A stretch of DNA of 64,000 bases from Escherichia coli (GTDB taxonomy: Bacteria; Pseudomonadota; Gammaproteobacteria; Enterobacterales; Enterobacteriaceae), in the NCBI RefSeq assembly GCF_030013595.1, contig NZ_CP122768.1. The stretch is one strand, 5' to 3'. The position numbers and the translations under genes are program-made. The notes below the pieces were generated by a model. The model was not told the DNA's origin, did not search any database, and saw nothing but the letters and a program-made list of their open reading frames with translations. Each line of letters starts with the position of its first letter. The stretch's first letter is position 1. Shown here piece after piece: positions 42,566-55,041 of this stretch.

Positions 42566-44152
42566 TTAATGCTCGCGGGTCTGGTGGAACTGAACGTCCG
42601 GATAACGTTCCTGCGCCAGACGCAGGTTGACCATGCTGGTAGCGATGTAAGCGAGGTTATCGCCGCCATCAAGCGCCAGTTGGCTTTCGTTCTTACGCTT
42701 GAACTCTTCGAATTTCTTCGCGTCCGCACATTCTACCCAGCGGGCAGTGGCAACGTTGACTGACTCATACACTGCTTCAACGTTGTATTCGCTCTTCAGG
42801 CGCGCTACCACCACATCAAACTGCAGCACACCAACTGCACCAACGATCAGGTCGTTGTTGGAGATCGGACGGAACACCTGCACCGCGCCCTCTTCGGAAA
42901 GCTGTACCAGCCCTTTGAGCAGCTGTTTTTGCTTCAGCGGATCTTTCAGGCGGATACGACGGAACAGTTCCGGTGCGAAGTTCGGAATACCGGTGAACTT
43001 CATCATCTCCCCCTGGGTAAAGGTGTCACCGATCTGAATAGTGCCGTGGTTGTGCAGGCCGAGGATATCGCCCGGATACGCTTCTTCAACGTGCGAACGG
43101 TCGCCCGCCATAAAGGTCAGCGCGTCGGAGATCACCACATCTTTCGCGGTGCGCACCTGGCGCAGCTTCATGCCTTTTTCATATTTACCGGATACCACGC
43201 GCATAAACGCCACGCGGTCGCGGTGTTTCGGGTCCATGTTGGCCTGAATTTTAAATACGAAGCCGGTAAATTTGTCTTCGCTCGCTTCTACGGTACGGGT
43301 ATCAGTCTGACGCGGCATCGGCGCAGGTGCCCACTCCACCAGGCCATCCAACATATGATCGACGCCGAAGTTACCTAGCGCAGTACCGAAGAATACCGGA
43401 GTGATTTCGCCCGCAAGGAATAATTCTTTGTCGAACTCGTTAGACGCGCCTTTCACCAGTTCCAGTTCGTCACGCAGCTGCTGCGCCAGATCTTCACCAA
43501 CCGCAGCATCGAGATCCGGGTTATTCAGCCCTTTAACAATGCGGACTTCCTGAATGGTGTGGCCTTTACCACTCTGATAAAGATAGGTTTCATCTTTATA
43601 AAGGTGGTAAACGCCTTTAAACAGCTTGCCGCAGCCAATCGGCCAGGTGATCGGCGCACAGCCGATTTTCAGCTCGTTCTCAACTTCATCGAGCAGTTCC
43701 ATCGGGTCGCGGATATCACGGTCAAGTTTGTTCATAAAGGTGAGGATCGGCGTGTCACGCAGACGGGTAACTTCCATCAGCTTGCGGGTACGATCTTCAA
43801 CACCTTTTGCGGCGTCGATAACCATCAGGCAGCAGTCCACCGCCGTCAGGGTACGATAGGTATCTTCCGAGAAGTCTTCGTGCCCCGGGGTGTCGAGCAG
43901 GTTAACCAGGCAATCGTGATACGGAAACTGCATCACAGACGTAGTAATGGAGATCCCACGCTGCTTTTCCATCTCCATCCAGTCCGACTTAGCGTGCTGG
44001 TTGGAACCACGGCCTTTTACTGTACCGGCGGTCTGAATGGCCTGTCCGAACAGCAGCACCTTCTCGGTGATGGTAGTCTTACCGGCGTCTGGGTGAGAAA
44101 TAATTGCAAAGGTTCTTCTTTTCGCTACCTCTGCGGCCAAAAGGCTTGTCAT
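42566..44152 (-). CDS. prfC: Peptide chain release factor 3
   Basis: Translation [40 protein letters not shown] (GTPase G1); track ORF starts at an upstream TTG (44179). Confidence 0.9.
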
Positions 44153-44171
44153 AATTGTTGTCTCGTTGATT

Positions 44172-44288
44172 ATGTACAATCATATGTACAAAGAAAAATT
44201 CATGCCGCTGATTGTACATTTTGGAGGTATCAGAGCATAGCAGAACATGATCAGTAGGTGTATTTGTAGCCAAAGCTCATTTGTACAT
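44172..44288. repeat. Cluster of four TGTACA-core repeats near the prophage-host junction
   Basis: ATGTACAA at 44172-44179 and 44184-44191; inverse TTGTACAT at 44212-44219 and 44281-44288. Confidence 0.35.
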
Positions 44289-44305
44289 GCCGCAATCTTC
44301 GTTCT

Positions 44306-44356
44306 ATTGACACTGTTTATTCACCCAGTTAAAAATAAGACTGTATACAAACACAG
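44306..44356 (+). promoter_or_regulatory. SOS-type promoter with LexA box upstream of the dinI-like gene
   Basis: Consensus -35 TTGACA (44306-44311); CTGT-N8-ACAG box CTGTATACAAACACAG (44341-44356); RBS GAGGG (44361-44365). Confidence 0.6.
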
Positions 44357-44371
44357 TATAGAGGGAATTTT

Positions 44372-44648
44372 ATGCGTATTGAGATCTGCATAGCCAAAGA
44401 GAAAATGACTAAACTGCCAAACAGCGCTGTGGATGCGTTAGAAGGAAGAATTAACCCGACGCACCGGTAAGCGTTATGAAGATGTAGAGGTGATCGTAAA
44501 AGCCACCAGCAATGATGACCTTTCTGTTACACGCACCGCCGATAAAGATTCAGTTAAAATTTTTGTTCAGGACACTCTGAAAGATACCTAGGAATTTGCT
44601 GACGAGTGATTTAGTTCATCATCTCTGGACACAATTCACTTGTATTGA
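44372..44648 (+). pseudogene. dinI-like gene with one frameshift and two stops at Trp positions
   Basis: Frame 1 [23 protein letters not shown] ends at TAA after a 1-nt frame slip near 44441; next frame continues [49 protein letters not shown], then TAG (44589-44591), EFADE, TGA (44607-44609), FSSS; the two stops sit where DinI proteins have the TWESADDWF tryptophans. Confidence 0.65.
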
Positions 44649-44674
44649 CTTTAAGATCATTAAATTGTAATAAT
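44645..44674 (+). promoter_or_regulatory. Candidate sigma-70 promoter for the leader/SLATT/RT transcript
   Basis: -35 TTGACT (44645-44650), 18-nt spacer, extended -10 TGtAATAAT (44666-44674); predicted start near 44681. Confidence 0.45.
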
Positions 44675-44680
44675 TCAAAA

Positions 44681-44815
44681 GGATGGGGCAGTTTTTTCCT
44701 CTTGCGTATGCAAGGGCGGCTCTGATAATGAACAGTAATATTTTACTGTTGAGCTTATGCTCACTGATCCTGCCGAGCAGGATGTTCAACGGTTCCAATA
44801 TATCCTGCCCCTTCC
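44681..44815 (+). ncRNA. Candidate structured leader or ncRNA upstream of the SLATT-RT operon
   Basis: 11-nt inverted repeat GGATGGGGCAG (44681-44691) and CTGCCCCTTCC (44805-44815), 10 of 11 bp, enclosing four hairpins: 44701-44714 (5 bp), 44731-44750 (8 bp), 44751-44762 (4 bp), 44767-44783 (7 bp). Alternative reading is a leaderless 51-codon N-terminal extension from ATG 44683. Confidence 0.35.
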
Positions 44816-44835
44816 GCTTTTTAAAAGGATATTTT

Positions 44836-45387
44836 ATGCATGAAAATATTTGGTTTACATATAAAGCCCGTATTCAAGCGCACCATAGACTAGAATGGCT
44901 TGAAAAACACTCTCAATTTATCCTCGTTTGGTATGCTATATTGAGTGCGGTACTTTCAATTATAACGTTACGATTTCCAAAATTTCTAGGAGATAATACA
45001 GATATCGTTGCGGCAATACTTTCAGTGGCTCTACTGGGTATTTCTCTGATCGTATCTAACCTAGATTATCGTGGTCGAGCAATAGCCATGAGAAGGAATT
45101 ATATTGCACTACAGAGACTCTATTTTGATATTAATAACGGCCAACAGTTAACTCTTGAACAGAAAGAAAAATATTTTAATTTGCTCAATGAGGTTGAGAA
45201 TCATCGTGACATAGATGATAAAGTTTCAAGGGTAACTCAAGTTGGACTTACGACTAGACTCCCCACACAAAAAGAAAAAATAATTGTTAAATTATGGATA
45301 TTACGTCGAATGTTTATTACTGTCGGCCTTTATATCCTCCCATTAATATGTCTTTGGATTGACTATGAATGCAAGCAGAGTTTTTAA
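44836..45387 (+). CDS. SLATT-like multi-TM protein (putative membrane effector)
   Basis: ATG 44836 with RBS AAGGA (44824-44828, 7-nt spacer); 183 aa; two adjacent hydrophobic helices (FILVWYAILSAVLSIITL, IVAAILSVALLGISLIVSNL) flanked by amphipathic helices, plus C-terminal MFITVGLYILPLICLWI; stop 45385-45387 overlaps RT start. Confidence 0.7.
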   Translation: MHENIWFTYKARIQAHHRLEWLEKHSQFILVWYAILSAVLSIITLRFPKFLGDNTDIVAAILSVALLGISLIVSNLDYRGRAIAMRRNYIALQRLYFDINNGQQLTLEQKEKYFNLLNEVENHRDIDDKVSRVTQVGLTTRLPTQKEKIIVKLWILRRMFITVGLYILPLICLWIDYECKQSF

Positions 45388-46735
45388 AAAGTCATTCTCG
45401 AAAAAAAACCTTCTAAAAGTATACAATGAAAAAATCAAAGAATCAGGAGCGATTGGCATAGATCGGATTCGTCCATCAAAACTTGATTTAACAATAAAGA
45501 ATGAGATCACTTTTATTTTTGAAAAGGTTAATTGTGGAAATTATAAATTTACAGCATATAAAGAAAAATTAATATCTAAAGGGGCTAACTCTATCCCCAG
45601 ACAGATTTCCATACCAACTGCCAGGGACAGAATTACCCTTAGGGCTCTCTGTGAATGCCTTACAGAAATATATCCTAACTCCAGATTAAAACTACCACAT
45701 ACAGTAATTGACTTATTGAAAAATGCATTAAACAGCGATCTATATGCTGAATATGCAAAAATAGATCTCAAAAGTTTCTATCCTTCAATTGAACATAAAT
45801 TGATATTTAATGCAATAAAAAATAAGATTAGAAAAAAAGAAATTAGGCAGTTAATAACATCATCATTAATCGTGCCTACTGTAAGTGGAAGTACAGGAAG
45901 CAAAGGTGTCCCTAATAATACCAGAGGAGTACCTCAGGGGTTAGCAATATCAAACATTTTAGCTGAAATATCACTATCTGATTTCGACAATGAAATCAAT
46001 AAAATGCATGACATATGGTACATGCGATACGTTGATGACATTCTTATTTTAACGCAAAAAGATCAAGCAACAAAAATTGCATCTCATATCATTGATAAGC
46101 TTCAATCATTAAATTTAAACCCACATCCATTAAATGAAGAGAACTCAAAATCCAAAGTAGGCAGCTTGGATGAAAGTTTCAACTTTTTGGGCTACCACAT
46201 AAAAAATCGAGAATTATTGATAAAACATGAGAGCATTCTTAGATTTGAGTCATCCTTAGCAAAAATTTTTACTGCATATAGACACGCTCTACTACAAGCT
46301 AAAAATAAGCGCGATAAAGAACGAGCTGTTGCATATTGTCAGTGGAAACTAAATCTTAGAATTACGGGGTGTGTGTTTGAAGGTAAACGATTGGGATGGG
46401 TATCGTACTTCTCACAAATAACGTCAACAGCTCAACTTCGAGCTGTTAATCATACGATCAATAATCTTATCCGCCGATTCGGCCTTTCATCAGAAATAAA
46501 ACCAAAGTCTTTGATTAAAACTTTCTATGAACTCCGCAGGGGTAGAGCGGAGACTTTTAAATACATACCTAACTTTGACAATCTACATATATCTCAGAAA
46601 CGAGAAATTGTTTCTATGTGGATAGGGAAAGAGAATGAAAAAAAACTTAGCAATAGTGAAATAGAGAGAAAATTTAAATTTAAAATTGCGAAATCAGTAA
46701 AAGAGCTTGAAGAGGACATTTCAGGGATATCATAG
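45365..46735 (+). CDS. Reverse transcriptase (RT domain plus ~170-aa C-terminal extension), family unassigned
   Basis: RT motifs in order: GIDRIRPS...IPRQISIPTARDRITLRAL, YAKIDLKSFYPSI, GVPQGLAISNILAEISLSDFD, YMRYVDDILIL (YVDD at 46028-46039), FLGYHI; ATG 45365 (track ORF starts at TTG 45359); AT-rich. Confidence 0.85.
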   Translation: MNASRVFKKSFSKKNLLKVYNEKIKESGAIGIDRIRPSKLDLTIKNEITFIFEKVNCGNYKFTAYKEKLISKGANSIPRQISIPTARDRITLRALCECLTEIYPNSRLKLPHTVIDLLKNALNSDLYAEYAKIDLKSFYPSIEHKLIFNAIKNKIRKKEIRQLITSSLIVPTVSGSTGSKGVPNNTRGVPQGLAISNILAEISLSDFDNEINKMHDIWYMRYVDDILILTQKDQATKIASHIIDKLQSLNLNPHPLNEENSKSKVGSLDESFNFLGYHIKNRELLIKHESILRFESSLAKIFTAYRHALLQAKNKRDKERAVAYCQWKLNLRITGCVFEGKRLGWVSYFSQITSTAQLRAVNHTINNLIRRFGLSSEIKPKSLIKTFYELRRGRAETFKYIPNFDNLHISQKREIVSMWIGKENEKKLSNSEIERKFKFKIAKSVKELEEDISGIS

Positions 46736-46847
46736 ATATGTAATCCATTAAATCCTTTATATATAAAGCAATAAACACACTATTTAAATTCACAAATCAG
46801 CCGCAGTATCCTGCCATGACAAGTTGCTGCGGCATATCACAAAACGA

Positions 46848-47432
46848 TTACTCCATAACAGGGACCGCAGGCCACTCAATATCAGGTGCAGTTGATGTAT
46901 CAACACGGTTCAGCAACACCCGATACTTTTTCCAGGCTTCCAGCAATGAGTTTTCTTCCTCCGTTGCGATTTCCAGATCTACAGCATCCTGAAGTGGCGC
47001 AATATGCTCACTGGCTACCTGCATCAGGTTGTTTTTTGTTTCTTCCGCCTCCCGGATCCGGAACAGTTTTTCTGCTTCCGTATCCTTCAACCAGGCTGTG
47101 CCGTTCCACTTCTGATATTCCCCTTCCGGCGATAACCAGGTAACATTTTCCGGTAACGGACCGAGTTCAGAAATAAATAACGCGTCGCCGGAAGCCACGT
47201 CATAAACCGTTTTACCCCGATGATCTTCAACGAGATGCCACGATGACTCATCACTGTTGAAAACAGCCACGAAGCCAGCCGGAATATCTGGCGGTGCAAT
47301 ATCGGTACTGTTTGCTGGCAGACCTGTATGAGGCGGAATATATGCGTCACCTTCACCAATAAATTCATTAGTTCCGGCCAGCAGATTATAAATTTTTATG
47401 GTCCGTGGTTGTTCACTCATTCTGAATGCCAT
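46848..47432 (-). CDS. tfa: Tail fiber assembly protein Tfa
   Basis: 194-aa [61 protein letters not shown]; reads as lambda Tfa. Confidence 0.9.
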
Positions 47433-50400
47433 TATGCAAGCCTCACAATATAGTTAAATGCGATGTTTTTGACGGTGTTTTCCGCGTTACCAGCAGCGTT
47501 AACGGTGATGGTGTGTCCATGTGAACCAATCGCAACGGAGTGCGTGTGTGCACCAATACCGACAGTATGTGCGTGTGCACCTGCAGATGCTGCTGTGCCG
47601 GACAGTGAGTGGCTATGGTTACCATCTGTACTGGTATTAGCTAACGCCCCCGTAGACATACCTACTGAGCCTTGTACACCCCAGGTATTTTGACCTGAGC
47701 TTGTATAACCATATTGATAAGTATCTTTAAAAACACTGGGGTTAAATCGACGGCCATCTCTATGGCTGTGATTACCAGCTGCATTCGTGCTGCCACTTAA
47801 ACTATGGGTATGCGCACCAGTGTTATTCGTGGATTTAGTGCCGTAATCAAACGACGATGTGGTTTTCGTCCCCAAATCAGTACTGGATGCGCTGGCGCTG
47901 TGGGTATGCGATTTTATGCCGTCCTGTTCCTGAGACAATACGGCACGACCACTGGCGGGCTTGCCCTTAATCGTCCAGCCACGCATATCAGGGATCACGC
48001 CTGACGGATAAGCGGCTGCAAGTTTCGGGTAGGCAGATTTGTCAAAAGTCTGCCCCTGCATCAGGGCATAACCAGACGGAACGGTATCTGATGGCCACGG
48101 AATTGGTGCGCCAACTGGGTAGCTTTCTGGTGGAAGATTTTTCGAGGTATAAACTTCTGCCCAGCCTTCCTCAAAACCATAGCCATCTCTTGAGGAACGG
48201 TAGAACAGACCTCCATTTCTGTAATGCGCCTTCATCTGCAGGGTCCGGCAACTTCCGACTCCGGTATAGAAGTTAACCAGAATATAGCTGTCGCCAGAGC
48301 GGGTGACATTGTAAGCGCCTGATTCGGCATTCCAGGGAACGCCACCATCCGCATCGGCATATGTATCCGTTGCCCTTCTGGCAAAAGCAGCCACATGCGC
48401 GGCGGTTAAAGTAATATCTTTTGAACCATCAAACTCAACCCCAGAAACCAGTCTTGGCGTTTGCAGCTTTGTTGCTGTCAATGCGTTACCGTTCAGACTT
48501 GCAGACAGTTTGGTTCCAATAACCAGTTCGCCGGTTGCGTTATCAATAGCAAACGGTCTTAATGTATTCCAGCCACCATAAACATCACCTTGATTGGTAA
48601 GCAGCAGGTAAGTTTTAGCGCCATCATTACGCCATAATGCCCCATACTCCCCACCTATCATTCGAATCTGATTACCACCACGCGCTACAATTTCGTCTGT
48701 GGCAAAAAGTTTTTTGCACGACAAGTTATCGTTAACGATTAACGAATGGGACTCATAAAAACCACGCCCACTCTTAAAATCAAGGATAACGTCCGCCGCG
48801 ATACATTCAGTCGCCGGATTTGTTGCCCCAAACTTATAGGTCGTATCATTAACAACGAGATCAGCACCAGGTGCGGATATTGACAGGCCATCTTCGATAA
48901 ACGCAAAAACAGGGAAAGCAGCGCCATCAACATAGAACACAGAGCGCAAATCATCGCCCTTATTACTCATCATTATTGAGTGGATGGCTCGTTCATTGTT
49001 TTGATATTGCCAGAACATTCCATAAGCATAACGCCCCCTGTCAGTCCAGCCACCAGGCATAACAAATCCGTTAAACTCGCAGTTATTCATCGGATCGCCT
49101 GCGGTTCTCGTTGCCGTGGTGATAATGACCCTTGATGCCAGTTCGCTTACTGAGCCAGCAGAACGCATAACAACAACAGGGTAATATTTTCCAGATGTTG
49201 CACCTGCAGGAGCGTTAACCCGCACATAACGCATACCACGCTTATCAGCAAAGTCTGTTTTACTGACCGCGTTAATGTTGTTCAGGAAGCGTCCCTTATC
49301 GGGTATATCAGCGCCGTTCTGGTCTTTCTGCAGACGTTTCTCTGCATTGTCATAGGCTGATTTTACTGCCTTTGGCGTTGCCGCCAGCGTTTCAGACGAA
49401 CTGTTGGTCGCACAGCTGAGCTGTACTATCCCCTTTTTCGTCGTACTTGCATCCTCAAGCGCCACGGCGGATGCAATATCCTCTGCCCGTTTTGCCGCTG
49501 TCTCGGCGCGCGTTGCCGCGGATTCCGCCGTACTTTTGCTCTGTGCTGCCGCCGTCGCACTGCCAGCTGCCTCTGTCGCCTTCGTGGATGCTGTCGTGGC
49601 GCTGCCCTTCGCTGCGGACGCTTGTCTGGTCGCCTCATCTTTTGAAGCAGACGCCGATGATGCCGATGACGCCGCCGAACTGGCGGACGATGCAGCTGCC
49701 ATTTTTGAGGATTCTGCGCTGGTTTCCGACGCTTTCGCGTTCGTCTCGGATGTCTTCGCTGCGGAAGCAGACCTCGCTGCTGCGCTGGCCTGTTCAGTGG
49801 CTTCGCCAGCCTTCGTTGTGGCTGTTGAAGCAGACGATGCGGCACTTTCTGCCGATTTTCCGGCGGCGGTGGCACTGGCTGAGGCCTGCCCGGCACTTGT
49901 TGACGCGGCACTGGCAGACGACGCAGCCGCTGTTTTTGAGCCTGCCGCAGCCGAGGCGCTCTGTCCCGCTGCCGTTTCAGAAGACCTGGCGTTTGTCTCA
50001 GACGTCTTTGCCGCCTTCGCGGAATTGCCTGCCGCCGTTGCCGAGGAAGCGGCACTACTGGCGCTTGATGATGCGTTCGTTTCTGATGATTTCGCTGCCT
50101 CTTTTGAGGCCGCCGCATCCCGGGCTGAGGTGGCTGCTTCTGACGCCTTCGTGGTCGCGGCGGATGCAGAAGTTGCTGCTGATTGTTGTGACGCTGCCGC
50201 ATTCGTTTCTGACGTTTTCGCCGCAGCGGCACTGGTAGCTGCCGCGCTTTTTGAGGACTCTGCAGCAGCAGCACTTTTCGATGCTTCACTGGCCTTTGTT
50301 GATGCCGTTCCTGCGCTGGAAGATGCTGACTGAGCCGACGACGCGGCCTGTCCGGCTGACGTGCTGGCTGCGCGTGCTGAGCCTGCAGCATCAGTCGCAT

Positions 50401-50836
50401 GGGTTGCCGCCTCACGGGCTGATGTGCAGGCATCGCTGGCTGACTTCTTCGCGGCTGCCGTGTTCTGTGCCACCGCGGACGCGTTACGCGCCACCTCTTC
50501 CACCATCAGTTCAAAACGGCGCAGTGCCTCAGGACGGGCATCATCCTCCGTCATGGCACCGAGAAAATCATTCAGCGTACCGGGTCGGGAATCTTCATAC
50601 ACGGTGATGGTCCCGGCATGTGACGGCGGGAATCCCTCCACCAACAGAATAACGCTGTACTGCCCGTACTCAACGTCCATGCTGTAACGCCCGGCTTCAT
50701 CCGGATTTTCTGAGGCCAGCGTGTTCACCACCACCGTGGTGCTGTTACGTTTTGCTTTCAGCTGGATTGTGCAGTTCTGTACCGGTTTTCCTGTGCCGTC
50801 TTTCAGTACACCTGAAATCTTTACTGCCATATTCAC
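47432..50836 (-). CDS. stf: Side tail fiber protein Stf with expanded Ala/Ser/Thr-rich repeat region
   Basis: N-terminus [36 protein letters not shown] (lambda Stf-like; track ORF starts 2 codons earlier); 1134-aa track ORF; repeats such as AAKTSETNA; C-terminal fibre domain. Confidence 0.85.
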
Positions 50837-50841
50837 CCCAC

Positions 50842-50868
50842 AAAAAAGCCCGCCTGAACCGGCGGGCT
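50842..50868 (-). terminator. Intrinsic terminator downstream of lom
   Basis: Minus strand reads AGCCCGCCGGTTCAGGCGGGCT followed by a T run. Confidence 0.5.
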
Positions 50869-50894
50869 GTCATAACACTGTGTTACCTGGCTAA

Positions 50895-51494
50895 TCAGAA
50901 TTTATAACCGACACCCACAATGAAACCGTCAGTGCGCCAGTCACCACTGCCGGAGCCTTCATAAGCAATATCAATGGCCACGGATTCGGTCGGGTTAACC
51001 TGCACGCCAGCTCCCCACGCCAGAGACGTGTTGCTGTGGCGACCGTCATCACTTCCGGTCAGCACGTCGTGCGTTTTCCCCTTGTTGTCAGTTACGCGGA
51101 GATAATCCCCGGAGAAAGTCGACACACGGCTGTAAGCCACACCCGCCATCGCATACGCGCTGAACCATTCATTCACGCGCACAGACGGCCCCGCCATTAC
51201 GCTGAACCAGCGGTTACGAACGGAATCTTCATGCCAGCTGGTATCGCTGTAATGCGTTTTTTGCTCATCTCCAGCGTTGGCATAACTGAATGACGTAATC
51301 AGCCCCAGCGTGTCCGTAAACTCATAACGGTATTTCACGTTAATCCCGTTCAGATTATCGCTGCCGGGAGCGTTCGTACGGGCATGAAGATACCCTGCGC
51401 TCAGTGTGGCCTGCTGCTCAGACGCCCATGCAGGCGCACCGGATACGGCCAGACAGATGGCTGCGGACAAAATGGCTGCACAAACTTTACGCAT
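50895..51494 (-). CDS. lom: Ail/Lom-family outer membrane protein
   Basis: 199-aa ORF with signal peptide MRKVCAAILSAAICLAVSGAPAWA and C-terminal GYKF; lambda lom position. Confidence 0.85.
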   Translation of the reverse strand: MRKVCAAILSAAICLAVSGAPAWASEQQATLSAGYLHARTNAPGSDNLNGINVKYRYEFTDTLGLITSFSYANAGDEQKTHYSDTSWHEDSVRNRWFSVMAGPSVRVNEWFSAYAMAGVAYSRVSTFSGDYLRVTDNKGKTHDVLTGSDDGRHSNTSLAWGAGVQVNPTESVAIDIAYEGSGSGDWRTDGFIVGVGYKF

Positions 51495-51561
51495 AATTAC
51501 CTCTCGCTTTTCTGCAATAAAAAAGGCGCCATTTCTGGCGCCCGTATATGGGTTATAAAAT

Positions 51562-54500
51562 TCAGCTGATACTGATGCCTGCGGTGGCTTTCTTCATCAC
51601 CACAACCAGCAAATCGCTGATACTTGCTGTGGGATACCAGTCATTTACCAGCCATGATGACACCGAAAACTCCAGCGTCATGTGGCCGCGACCAGCTGGC
51701 ATATCAATAACACCACTGTAAATCAGCGTATTATCCAGCGCGGTACGGTTATAAATTTCAGCACCGTTTTTCCGTACTATCAGGCGGCATGACGAATAAA
51801 TATCGTTATTCTCCCTCTCATGTTTAGCGCCGCTGAATGCCACCGCCGGAATAACAATCTGCCGGTCAAACGGCTGATCGTCATAAACCCTGACGGTGAT
51901 GGTCCCTGATGGCCACCGTTCCGGTGCACGGGAGTCCCGGGGGAAAGCTTTGCCCACTGTTTTAACGAGATCGCCTTCAATCTGGTTGGCGGACAGTTTT
52001 CCCAGAACCCGACAGTTCTCGTTAATCGTGACGTTGTTGAGCGTCCCGGAGTTCGCATTCACGTTACCGCTGATATCGGCATTTTTCGCCGTCAGCCGCC
52101 CGTCCGGTGTCAGGGAAAATACCGGAGGATTACCGCCGCTGGTAATGGTGGGAGCCGTCAGGCGTTTCAGGAACACGTCGTTCATGAATATCTGATCGCC
52201 CTGCCCAACAAACATCGGCTTTGTGTTGCCATTCGCAGGATTAATCATCGCAATCCTGTCTGCCGCCAGCAGCACCTGACTCTGCATGCCGTCAGGGGTG
52301 TTCTCAATACCGGCACCAATACCCGCGATATAAAGGCGTCCGTCCTGCATCTGCTGCAGCTTCACAGCCCACATGCTGTTCAGGTTATTATTTGTATCAA
52401 CCTGAACCTGCTGTATCTGCTGAATTGCCGCACTCTGGTCTTCCAGTTTCTTATTGACGGTCTGCGTGATTTCATTGCTGACATCCGTAATGGACGTCCT
52501 GATTTCAGCCAGGTCAGGCGCAAGCTGACCGTTATCAATCTGCGTCCACAGCTCCTGAGCCAGATGGGTTTTCCCTATCTCGCCTTTGAAAAAATCCAGA
52601 TAGCCGGATGCGTCATCACTCGGCTGACCAACAGCCTCCACGAATGCCGATTTGCCAACGGTGTTCACACTGCGAACGTAAAAATAATAATTATGGCCCG
52701 GCCTGATATTGATACTGGCGGCTATCCAGTACAGCGCCGTGCCAAGATAGCGTGCTGTGGTTTCAACCTGCCTGATATCCGCAATCCGCTTTTCCGAGAA
52801 CCAGAACTCAAACTGTACCGTCGGATCATAAACCGCAAGATGCGGCGTGGCGGTTATCTGAAAATAGCCCGGCGTCAGCTCAATCCGCGACGGCGCTGCC
52901 GGTGCGGCAATCCGGAACGATACCGACGCCGGATCGCCCTGCTGCCCCCACGCATTTACTGCCCGGACTGTCAGCCTGTAGTTCCCCAGCGCCAGTTGTG
53001 TGAAGCAGTAAGTGGTTTCCGTCGTCCGGGCCGTGCTGACCAGCCGCTCACTGCCGTCATCCGCTGCCACGGTCAGGCGAAGCAGGAAGCTCACGCCCTT
53101 CACCACCTTCGGCGTGTCCCAGCGCGCCAGCACCTGATATTCCCCGCTGTCTGCGGTGACTTCGGCAGTCAGGTGCTGCACTGCTGGCGGCGTGACACCA
53201 TTCACCGTGGCGCTCTGGTCACCGTCAAAGTGCGCCCCGTTATCCACGATGGCTTCTTTTTCCGGTACATGCTGCACGGCGGTGATGGCATACGTGCCGC
53301 CGTCGTTCTCACGGATACTCACGCAGCGGAACAGGCGCTGGCGCAGCGTCGGCAGCTTCAGCCCCCACACGCTGTATTCAGCAACACCGTCAGGAACACG
53401 GCTCACTTTCACCTTCACGCCGTCGGTGACGGACTGAACCTCCACGCTGACCGGATTGCCACTTCCGTCAACCAGGCTTATCAGCGTGGTACCGGAGGAT
53501 GGCAGCGTGATTTCACGGTCGAGCGTCAGCGTCCGGGTCTGGCTGTTCACCGCCAGCACGCGCCCGCCGGTGCTGATACCGGCATAGTCATCATCGCAGA
53601 TTTCAATGACATCGCCCGGTACATGGCGAAGCCCCTCAGCACCCACGCTGAAGTCCACGGTCTGCGTTTCCAGCAGCTCCGTTTTAATCAGCCACAGCCC
53701 GGCGCGGTGTGCCTGCCCCCGGCTGGTACAGCCAAAGGCATCCATCTTCGTGACGTTACGACCGTAACGGACAATGGCCTGCGTATCCTCCACAAGCTCT
53801 GTCGCCGTCTCCTGGCCGTTGTTCGGGTCAATCCAGTTCACCTCAACGGCATTATGGCGGTCCTTCAGGGCGCTGAAGCTGTAGCGGAACGGCGCGCCAT
53901 CATCCGGCATCACCACATTACTGCGGTTATAGGTCCACACCTTATCCGACGGTCGGTCCTGCACGAACGTCAGCGTCTGCCCGTTCCATACCGGCATACA
54001 GCGCATCGCCGAGCAGAAATCACTGAGTACATCCCACGCCTTGCGCTGTGTGGTCAGGTAAGCGTTACAGGTGATGCGCGGCTCCGTGCCGCCAGAGCCG
54101 TCCGGCACCAACTGGTCGCAGTACTGACCGATGACATACAGTGCCCATTTATCCACATCTGCCGCACCAAGACGTTTCCCCATGCCGTAGCGCGGATGGG
54201 TCAGCATATCCCACAGACACCAGGCCATGTTGTTGCTGTATGCTGGCTTTAACGTTCCGTCCCAGATACCGCTGTATTGCCGCGTCTGCGGGTTATAGTT
54301 CGACGGCACCTGCAGAATGCGCCCGCGAAGATGATAATTACGGCTCACCTGCTGGCTGCCGAACTGCTCCGAGTCCACCTGCACGCCAACCAGTGCCGTG
54401 TTCGGGTAGCACTGTTTCACATCGATGATTTCGGTGTATGACGACCAGAGCGTTTTGTTCTGCAGCTGGTCTGTGGTGCTGTCCGGCGTCATCCTGCGCA

Positions 54501-55041
54501 TCCGGATATTAAACGGACGCGGCGGCAGATTATCCACCACTACCGAGGCCAGATACTGCGAGGTGGTTTTGCCCTTAATGGTGATGTCTTTTTCCGTCAC
54601 CCAGCCACCGTTACGCTGTATCTGAACCAGCAGGCGAACTTCCGACGGATTCCGGTCCCCCTTTGAGGTGGTTTCCACCAGTGCCTGCACGCCGAAAGTA
54701 AAACGCAGACGGTCAATGTTTGCCGACGTGATGGTCCGGGTGATCGGCGTGTCATATTTCACTTCCGTACCCAGCACCGTCTCGGAGCCGGAGGATTCAA
54801 ACCCCTCCGGCGGTATCTGCTCCTGCTCACCGGCCCGGAACACCACCGTGACACCGGAGATGTTGGTATTCCCCTCACTGTCCAGCACCGGCGTGCTGTT
54901 CAGCAGCACGCTTTTTAATCCATCCACCGGACCTTCAATCGGCCCTTCGCTGATTGCATCAATCACACTCAGCAACTGCGTGGACTTCAGATTGTCCTTC
55001 GCTTCGCGCGGGGTATGCCCCTTACTGCTGCCTTTACCCAT
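51562..55041 (-). CDS. J: Host specificity (central tail fibre) protein J
   Basis: 1159-aa [51 protein letters not shown], matching lambda gpJ N-terminus. Confidence 0.9.

Follow-up and report, generated by a model that had tools for sequence, protein, structure and literature searches.

The Ala/Ser/Thr-rich repeat of an StfR-type lambdoid side tail fibre in Escherichia coli: evidence for a heptad coiled-coil shaft of common length

Is a long Ala/Ser/Thr-rich tract in a phage side tail fibre an expanded, recombination-prone repeat, or is it an ordinary structural part of the fibre? The question is raised by the side tail fibre gene, stf, in a stretch of 64,000 nucleotides of Escherichia coli DNA (RefSeq assembly GCF_030013595.1, contig NZ_CP122768.1), referred to here as the window, in which the initial annotation had described positions 49429-50479 as an expanded low-complexity repeat domain. 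All coordinates given below are window positions and amino acid (aa) numbering follows the 1134-aa open reading frame (ORF) of stf unless stated, so that the tract in question corresponds to Stf aa 120-469. Our analysis indicates that the tract is very probably the proximal coiled-coil rod of an StfR-type lambdoid side tail fibre. The shaft is as such ordinary and already known, as the trimeric coiled-coil nature of the Ala/Ser region has been published, and with the gene being essentially StfR of E. coli K-12 the locus carries little weight as a discovery.

The heptad repeat is real and far above chance. In Stf aa 115-464 (49445-50494, minus strand), 134 of the 350 residues are Ala (38%), 84 are Ser (24%) and 38 are Thr (11%), the three together making up 73% of the segment, and when it is written in rows of seven a single register of 50 strict Ala/Ser heptads runs through it without a skip. 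Position 1 is occupied by Ala in 47 heptads and by Val in the other three, position 4 by Ser in 37 of the 50 and position 5 by Ala in 35 of the 50; Ala at positions 1 and 5 provides the 3-4 spacing that is typical of a coiled-coil core. Autocorrelation of the protein sequence, measured against 500 shuffles, placed the top 20 offsets without exception at multiples of 7 (mean z of 8.3 compared with -1.1 elsewhere), the top 20 offsets of the coil DNA were all multiples of 21 nt, and the Fourier spectrum of Ala in the coil peaked at 3.5 and 7.0 residues. The internal run of degenerate repeats of the AAKTSETNA type reported initially is borne out by this register; AAKTSETNA itself occurs three times exactly in Stf and AAKSSETNA once. 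A search for a super-period of 15 heptads was negative, offsets of 105 aa or 315 nt being no more prominent than the remaining multiples of 7 or 21.

At the DNA level the repeat is far more diverged. Tandem Repeats Finder applied to 47000-53000 returned three trivial arrays only, with all scores in the coil at or below 43, and the head-to-tail copies of high identity that would define an unstable tandem repeat were not found in the coil. In-phase copies within the DNA repeat families are 60-85% identical, the average in-phase identity across the coil is 0.41-0.46, and the longest exact repeat within it is 12 nt. Any heptad duplications must therefore be ancient.

A coiled-coil assignment is consistent with published work on two homologous fibres. 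Ur-lambda Stf is divided into a collar (residues 1-91), a linker (92-101), a proximal trimeric coiled coil (102-393) and a hinge (394-422), followed by a distal domain and an OmpC-binding tip; its proximal segment is visible as a rod by cryo-electron tomography (cryo-ET), and the fibre is trimeric on the tail and gives faster adsorption via an outer-membrane receptor (Yu et al., 2025; PMC12617516). The window coil aligns with this proximal coiled coil (residues 102-393). In a prophage fibre of enterohaemorrhagic E. coli (EHEC), the Ala/Ser region that follows the same N-terminal domain was established as a trimeric coiled coil by circular dichroism (CD), size-exclusion chromatography with multi-angle laser light scattering (SEC-MALLS) and electron microscopy, and this PCoil domain has the period Ala-X-X-Ala/Ser-X-X-Ser and lengths that vary by multiples of seven (Ghosh et al., 2012; PMC3368898). 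By analogy with these homologues, in which a trimer has been demonstrated, the window coil would contain three parallel chains. AlphaFold2 (AF2), run as a monomer on an alignment of 12 alleles, predicted helix over aa 100-279 and 286-464 (residues 6-185 and 192-370 of the modelled segment) with predicted local distance difference test (pLDDT) scores mostly of 75-87, and a non-helical GIVQLS...AATP junction beyond it that is followed by a short helix. Taken together, the prediction, the heptad register and homology place the alpha-helical coiled-coil shaft at 49445..50536 (minus strand), with the helix beginning at about aa 100-101. The term low-complexity is therefore misplaced, since the segment is a coiled coil of strict heptads that published structural work supports, and fibre segments of similar appearance should be tested for a heptad register before a repeat expansion is named.

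If the tract is a shaft, the next issue is whether its length is unusual. Ur-lambda Stf (774 aa) was rebuilt from lambda orf-401 and orf-314 with the Hendrix and Duda frameshift restored, and aligned to the window Stf. Residues 3-305 and 411-492 of the window protein align to it and aa 905-1134 do so at 71% identity, which agrees with the earlier description of lambda-like ends, and the window protein is indeed well above the ~770 aa given for Ur-lambda, exceeding the rebuilt sequence by 358 residues. This total is made up of +105 residues in the coil, +269 in the central module and -16 in the tip; less than a third of the extra length is repeat, since only 105 of the 358 residues lie in the coil. 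The collar domain, linker, Ala/Ser heptad coil, GIVQLS...AATPKAVK junction, gp37-like tip and adjoining lom and tfa genes are all shared with Ur-lambda Stf. The two proteins differ in that Ur-lambda lacks heptads 28-42 of the window coil, making the surplus exactly 105 aa or 15 heptads, and has a distal segment of 145 aa in place of the 414-aa module of the window Stf, which includes a gp34-like trimerisation domain. This block of 15 heptads (aa 311-415; 49592..49906, minus strand, with its placement ambiguous by about one heptad) is present in both the window Stf and StfR but not in lambda. The coil, for which an effect on fibre length had been suggested, does vary among alleles by whole heptads, but most of the additional protein length comes from the central module. 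We note that the frameshift of laboratory lambda falls downstream of the coil, past the AATPKAVK junction (orf-401 ends ...MDETNRKAHWTVRH), and that a different frameshift is seen in L071, whose 345-aa product departs from the stf frame within the coil after heptad 26 and continues in an alternative frame.

The closest reference is StfR of the K-12 Rac prophage (b1372, 1120 aa), to which the window Stf is 94% identical over 1134 aligned positions; domain order and the 50-heptad coil are common to both, the alignment has no gaps before aa 1020, and tfa lies directly downstream in each case. The window gene is also 98.7% identical in nucleotide sequence to the annotated Stf gene of phage PhiR34_1, and in phages PhiR34_1 and Kati the gene is 3405 nt, identical in length to that of the window, at 98% identity. 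Of 5426 complete E. coli genomes, 4104 contain coil DNA and 3599 have at least 80% of the coil, with roughly 6,600 copies in total, and the gene is usually annotated stfR; the coil DNA occupies a median of one and a maximum of seven places per genome. Distant relatives, with N-terminal domains that are 47-80% identical, have coils of anything between a few and approximately 51 heptads, although the generic heptad-run estimator used for these is crude, as register shifts break runs and chance runs are counted. With its 50 heptads the window allele falls close to the upper limit of the family range yet is the common form in E. coli.

Alleles closer to the window Stf were surveyed in viral contigs sharing its N-terminal domain, using the best 80 of approximately 600 matches, a sample biased to close relatives; lengths were taken from viral contigs and cluster representatives, as a protein database search with the N-terminal domain gave almost only truncated fragments. 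Most of these coils have 50 heptads and the others have 48, 37, 35 or 34, discrete alleles that occur among relatives with 96-100% identical N-terminal domains, and the anchor-to-anchor distances are 244, 251, 342 or 356 aa, all of which are 6 modulo 7. The 50-heptad length is constant across alleles that are 5-10% apart in DNA. In an alignment by heptad, the part of the window coil that is missing differs from one short allele to the next: heptads 28-42 in the lambda type, 14-28 in L033, 13-27 in L073, 19-34 (16 heptads) in L081 and 15-16 (two heptads) in L039. The heptads on either side of every deletion junction resemble each other, as AKSSETN and AKTSETN do. Because the different gaps fall in one common long sequence, the short forms are read as deletions, and on this comparison of sequences the lambda shaft is better read as a 15-heptad deletion derivative of the long form, lambda being a contracted variant and not the reference length. 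In-register deletions of 15 or 16 heptads were observed in the coils of L033, L045, L066, L073 and L081.

The converse would be that heptads were recently gained by tandem duplication from a lambda-like ancestor of 774 aa and that this gain explains the extra length. Such an expansion would fit the 15 heptads by which the window shaft does exceed that of lambda, the recurrence of AAKTSETNA-like motifs and a count of 50-51 heptads at the top of the wider family range. However, independent insertions cannot produce five short alleles that each lack a different block of one long sequence, the low identity of in-phase copies dates the duplications as ancient, the StfR coil of K-12 is equally long and most E. 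coli genomes contain coil DNA, and 269 of the 358 extra residues belong to a different central module. We therefore regard recent expansion as quite unlikely and retain the interpretation of a long-established heptad shaft from which shorter forms have been derived by deletion.

Several points weigh against this interpretation of a coiled-coil rod with lambda as a shortened form. The AF2 monomer had a mean pLDDT of 75 and a predicted template modelling (pTM) score of 0.37, and its helix turns into a hairpin at aa 280-285, a feature that probably arises from modelling one chain alone. The core is composed almost purely of Ala and Ser, which is atypical for coiled coils. The trimer, the rod length and the spacer role proposed for the window allele are taken by analogy from homologues, and the polarity of the deletions is a parsimony argument on a sample skewed to close relatives of the query. 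The composition and the middling AF2 confidence could also describe an intrinsically disordered, flexible low-complexity linker, given that 73% of the residues are Ala, Ser or Thr and there are hardly any large hydrophobic residues. A linker of this kind would need neither an invariant seven-residue register maintained over 350 residues and between alleles nor insertions and deletions limited to multiples of seven; moreover, AF2 gives helix, and for the homologous segments CD and SEC-MALLS have shown helical trimers and cryo-ET a rod. A disordered linker is accordingly highly improbable, and a folded rod is the reading that we follow below.

A tract of this composition might also have been miscounted during assembly, with reads collapsed or expanded over the repeat, and collapse had been raised as a concern along with recombination. 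It is true that short-read assemblies break close to the start of the coil. The protein database contains thousands of Stf entries of only 130-230 aa, N-terminal pieces whose contigs stop near this point, and some of these entries are mislabelled as 'short-chain fatty acid transporter, partial' (P0016, P0038, P0041) or 'peptidase S74' (P0031). These breaks are better explained by the several prophages per genome that share this sequence, which is their likely cause, than by internal repeats. Collapse is unlikely because exact repeats do not exceed 12 nt and because the K-12 reference, closed genomes and isolated phages all have the same length: ungapped matches of 1051/1051 nt to the coil are present in closed genomes, the coil of K-12 MG1655 is of equal length and the 3405-nt gene is reproduced in PhiR34_1 and Kati. 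Tandem Repeats Finder detected no array in the coil, and the reading frame and heptad register are intact. The chance that the heptad count is an assembly artefact is negligible.

The recombination part of that concern does stand for the past. The coil has recombined over an evolutionary timescale, as the deletion junctions join similar heptads and swaps have taken place in register. One group of alleles tracks the window coil to heptad 23 and then carries a different coil sequence in the same register together with other distal modules, and many alleles change module directly after AATPKAVK. For phage engineering, these in-register deletions and swaps mark natural points at which shaft length or the distal module could be altered with the fibre unbroken.

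Three long ORFs overlap the coil, and they had been put down as spurious antisense frames. Two are antisense to stf, one of 309 aa at 49404..50333 (plus strand), the counterpart of the annotated orf206b of lambda, and one of 263 aa at 49447..50238 (plus strand); the third, of 335 aa and rich in Arg, Gln and Pro, is an alternative frame on the stf strand itself (49426..50433, minus strand), so the description holds for their spurious nature but for the strand of only two. Could one of them, such as the orf206b counterpart, be a real gene? ORFs of 263-335 aa are unusual, orf206b is annotated in lambda at the corresponding position, the 49447-50238 frame contains one stop where shuffles predict 7-9 (P ~0.001), and the ratio of nonsynonymous to synonymous polymorphism (pN/pS) is 0.17 in the frame of 49404-50333. 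Differences among the 50-heptad alleles, however, are distributed over stf codon positions 1, 2 and 3 as 83, 80 and 462 (462 of 625 at the third), with a pN/pS of 0.15 in the stf frame, and it is this frame that is under purifying selection. The value of 0.17 for 49404-50333 is uninformative, as this frame shares its wobble positions with stf and would be expected to give a low ratio even if it coded for nothing, and the other two frames gave 2.95 (49447-50238) and 2.70 (49426-50433). Stop counts vary among alleles in both antisense frames, from 0 to 3 in that of 49404-50333 and from 0 to 4 in the other. From codon composition alone, 0-1.7 stops would be expected in two of the overlapping frames, including none in the 49426-50433 frame, and the translations are monotonous strings of Ala/Asp/Phe/Val or Arg/Gln/Pro.

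The shortage of stops in the 49447-50238 frame was considered as a sign of coding and is ruled out as such by the pN/pS of 2.95. It follows from the small number of codon boundaries in the coil at which NNT is followed by ANN, and this shortage is probably a context inherited through heptads descended from one another rather than the product of antisense selection. As the shortage can be passed down with duplicated heptads, the shuffles overstate its significance. Boundaries of this kind are threefold rarer in the coil (49445-50494) than expected (five seen, 14.4 expected; Fisher p 0.0012) and close to expectation elsewhere, with ratios of 0.91 in the rest of stf and 0.87 in J. No evidence of coding was found for the three ORFs from pN/pS or from ORF conservation among alleles, and two of the frames are clearly non-coding. 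The prospect of a genuine overlapping gene is extremely slight; the long ORFs are by-products of codons rich in GCN, TCN and ACN, and ORFs overlapping such coils, lambda orf206b included, should not be annotated.

The remainder of the locus is in keeping with a lambdoid side tail fibre, as the window Stf has a phage_tail_N domain, the gene order J-lom-stf-tfa of lambda and Rac, with all four genes on the minus strand of the window, and full-length similarity to StfR. J (51562-55041) is the neighbour of lom (50895-51494; Ail_Lom, E 5e-124), and stf is followed by tfa, encoding the tail fibre assembly chaperone (46848..47432; Pfam Caudo_TAP, E 6.8e-44). The length of 1134 aa first given for Stf is correct for the maximal ORF (47432..50836), counted from a GTG at 50836, but the lambda-equivalent ATG lies two codons inside it at 50830, after the lom terminator and GGGGTGA. 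Since both lambda Stf and K-12 StfR begin at this ATG, it is the most likely start, giving a predicted protein of 1132 aa (47432..50830). The N-terminal tail-attachment (collar) domain occupies aa 3-96 (50549..50830); Pfam phage_tail_N (PF08400) covers aa 3-136 with its full profile (E 1.6e-71), and aa 3-96 match the 94-aa 'Tail fiber protein' chain of PDB entries 9e7m and 9mgh (E 2e-51; 12 chains per entry). Beyond the shaft, the conserved junction motif KGIVQLS...AATPKAVK (aa 468-492; 49361..49435) is the point straight after which relatives change their distal module, and Mu tail fibre protein S (5yvq) matches aa 443-523, spanning the end of the coil and the junction. The central or distal module that follows (aa 493-906; 48119..49360) is unrelated to residues 386-530 of lambda Stf and contributes most of the extra length; it contains matches to Pfam Gp34_trimer (aa 665-764), T4 gp34 in the PDB (aa 708-779) and Mu gpS (8ju3; aa 815-909). 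The C-terminal receptor-binding tip (aa 907-1134; 47435..48118) has a Pfam Collar domain (aa 909-956) and HxH repeats, and aa 904-1134 match the receptor-binding tip of T4 gp37 (PDB 2xgf, E 3.7e-85).

It is in the tip that the window Stf departs from StfR. A loop of about 45 residues (aa 1021-1065; 47640-47775, minus strand), located between HxH motifs of the gp37-like tip, has been replaced and is 12 aa longer in the window, and this is the only substantial difference between the two proteins. The loop is the likely receptor-specificity determinant, and the variable tip is a more plausible seat of host range than the length of the shaft. There are also two Ser to Cys differences, at aa 137 in the coil (ACTSARE; 50426-50428, minus strand) and at aa 475 in the junction (GIVQLS(S/C)ATNS; 49412-49414, minus strand), both positions being Ser in all relatives compared; these could be putative inter-chain disulfides in a trimer.

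In EPclA and EPclB, the collagen-like PCoil fibre proteins of EHEC prophages (PMC3368898), the N-terminal Pfam domain is that of the window Stf and a seven-residue repeat rich in Ala and Ser comes after it, but their PCoil is much shorter (approximately residues 101-245) and leads into a collagen triple helix and PfC domains, whereas the window coil of about 350 aa is followed by gp34-like and gp37-like modules. T4 gp37 and gp34 and Mu gpS (of the P2 gpH type) have modules in common with the window Stf, namely the gp37 tip, the gp34 trimerisation domain and the Mu S segments, although the T4 and Mu fibres attach to the virion differently. As judged from sequence similarity, these common modules illustrate the known mosaicism of tail fibre genes. 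Over most of the coil (aa 115-442) there was no sequence match to the solved T4 and Mu chains, the sole overlap being that of Mu gpS with aa 443-523.

We propose that approximately 50 heptads of small residues, with Ala at positions 1 and 5 and Ser at position 4, would form a long alpha-helix, three chains of which would most likely be wound into a thin parallel trimeric coiled coil. The heptad part of such a rod would measure about 52 nm (350 residues x 0.148 nm) compared with about 36 nm in lambda (245 residues), a difference of about 15.5 nm. The rod would join the N-terminal tail clamp to the hinge/junction motif, the exchangeable distal module and the gp37-like tip, the folding of which Tfa would assist, and it may act as a spacer that sets the reach of the tip, with the fibre contacting its receptor before J meets its own. 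With all heptads alike, deletions and module exchanges could occur in register and leave fibre function intact.

Whether shaft length is itself under selection in discrete classes is more doubtful, and we consider it rather unlikely. Exactly 15 heptads (105 residues, approximately one predicted supercoil turn) are missing in each of three distinct deletions and 16 in a fourth, so that about 35 of the 50 heptads are left; this recurrence may be due to chance, or to common ancestry and later conversion of the junctions, those of L033 and L073 being one heptad apart. If the length classes were true, the reach of the fibre, with a heptad part of about 36 or 52 nm, would be tuned, for instance to the thickness of O-antigen or capsule, and the coil would be both an in-register length switch and a module-swapping linker.

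The neighbourhood of the fibre genes differs from that of StfR on the far side of tfa, where the Rac locus has pinR and the window has a two-gene pair (44683-46735, plus strand) that lies at the prophage end, between prfC and a DinI-like gene on one side and tfa on the other. The first gene encodes a SLATT domain-containing protein of 234 aa according to the RefSeq annotation (44683-45387, plus strand), and the second a reverse transcriptase of 458 aa (45359-46735, plus strand; PADLOC RT_UG17, E 8e-159; Pfam RVT_1, E 8e-21). The pair is a candidate defence-associated reverse transcriptase carried as a prophage accessory (moron) gene. The region 43000-47432 is covered by at least 80% in only 78 of the 5426 complete E. 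coli genomes.

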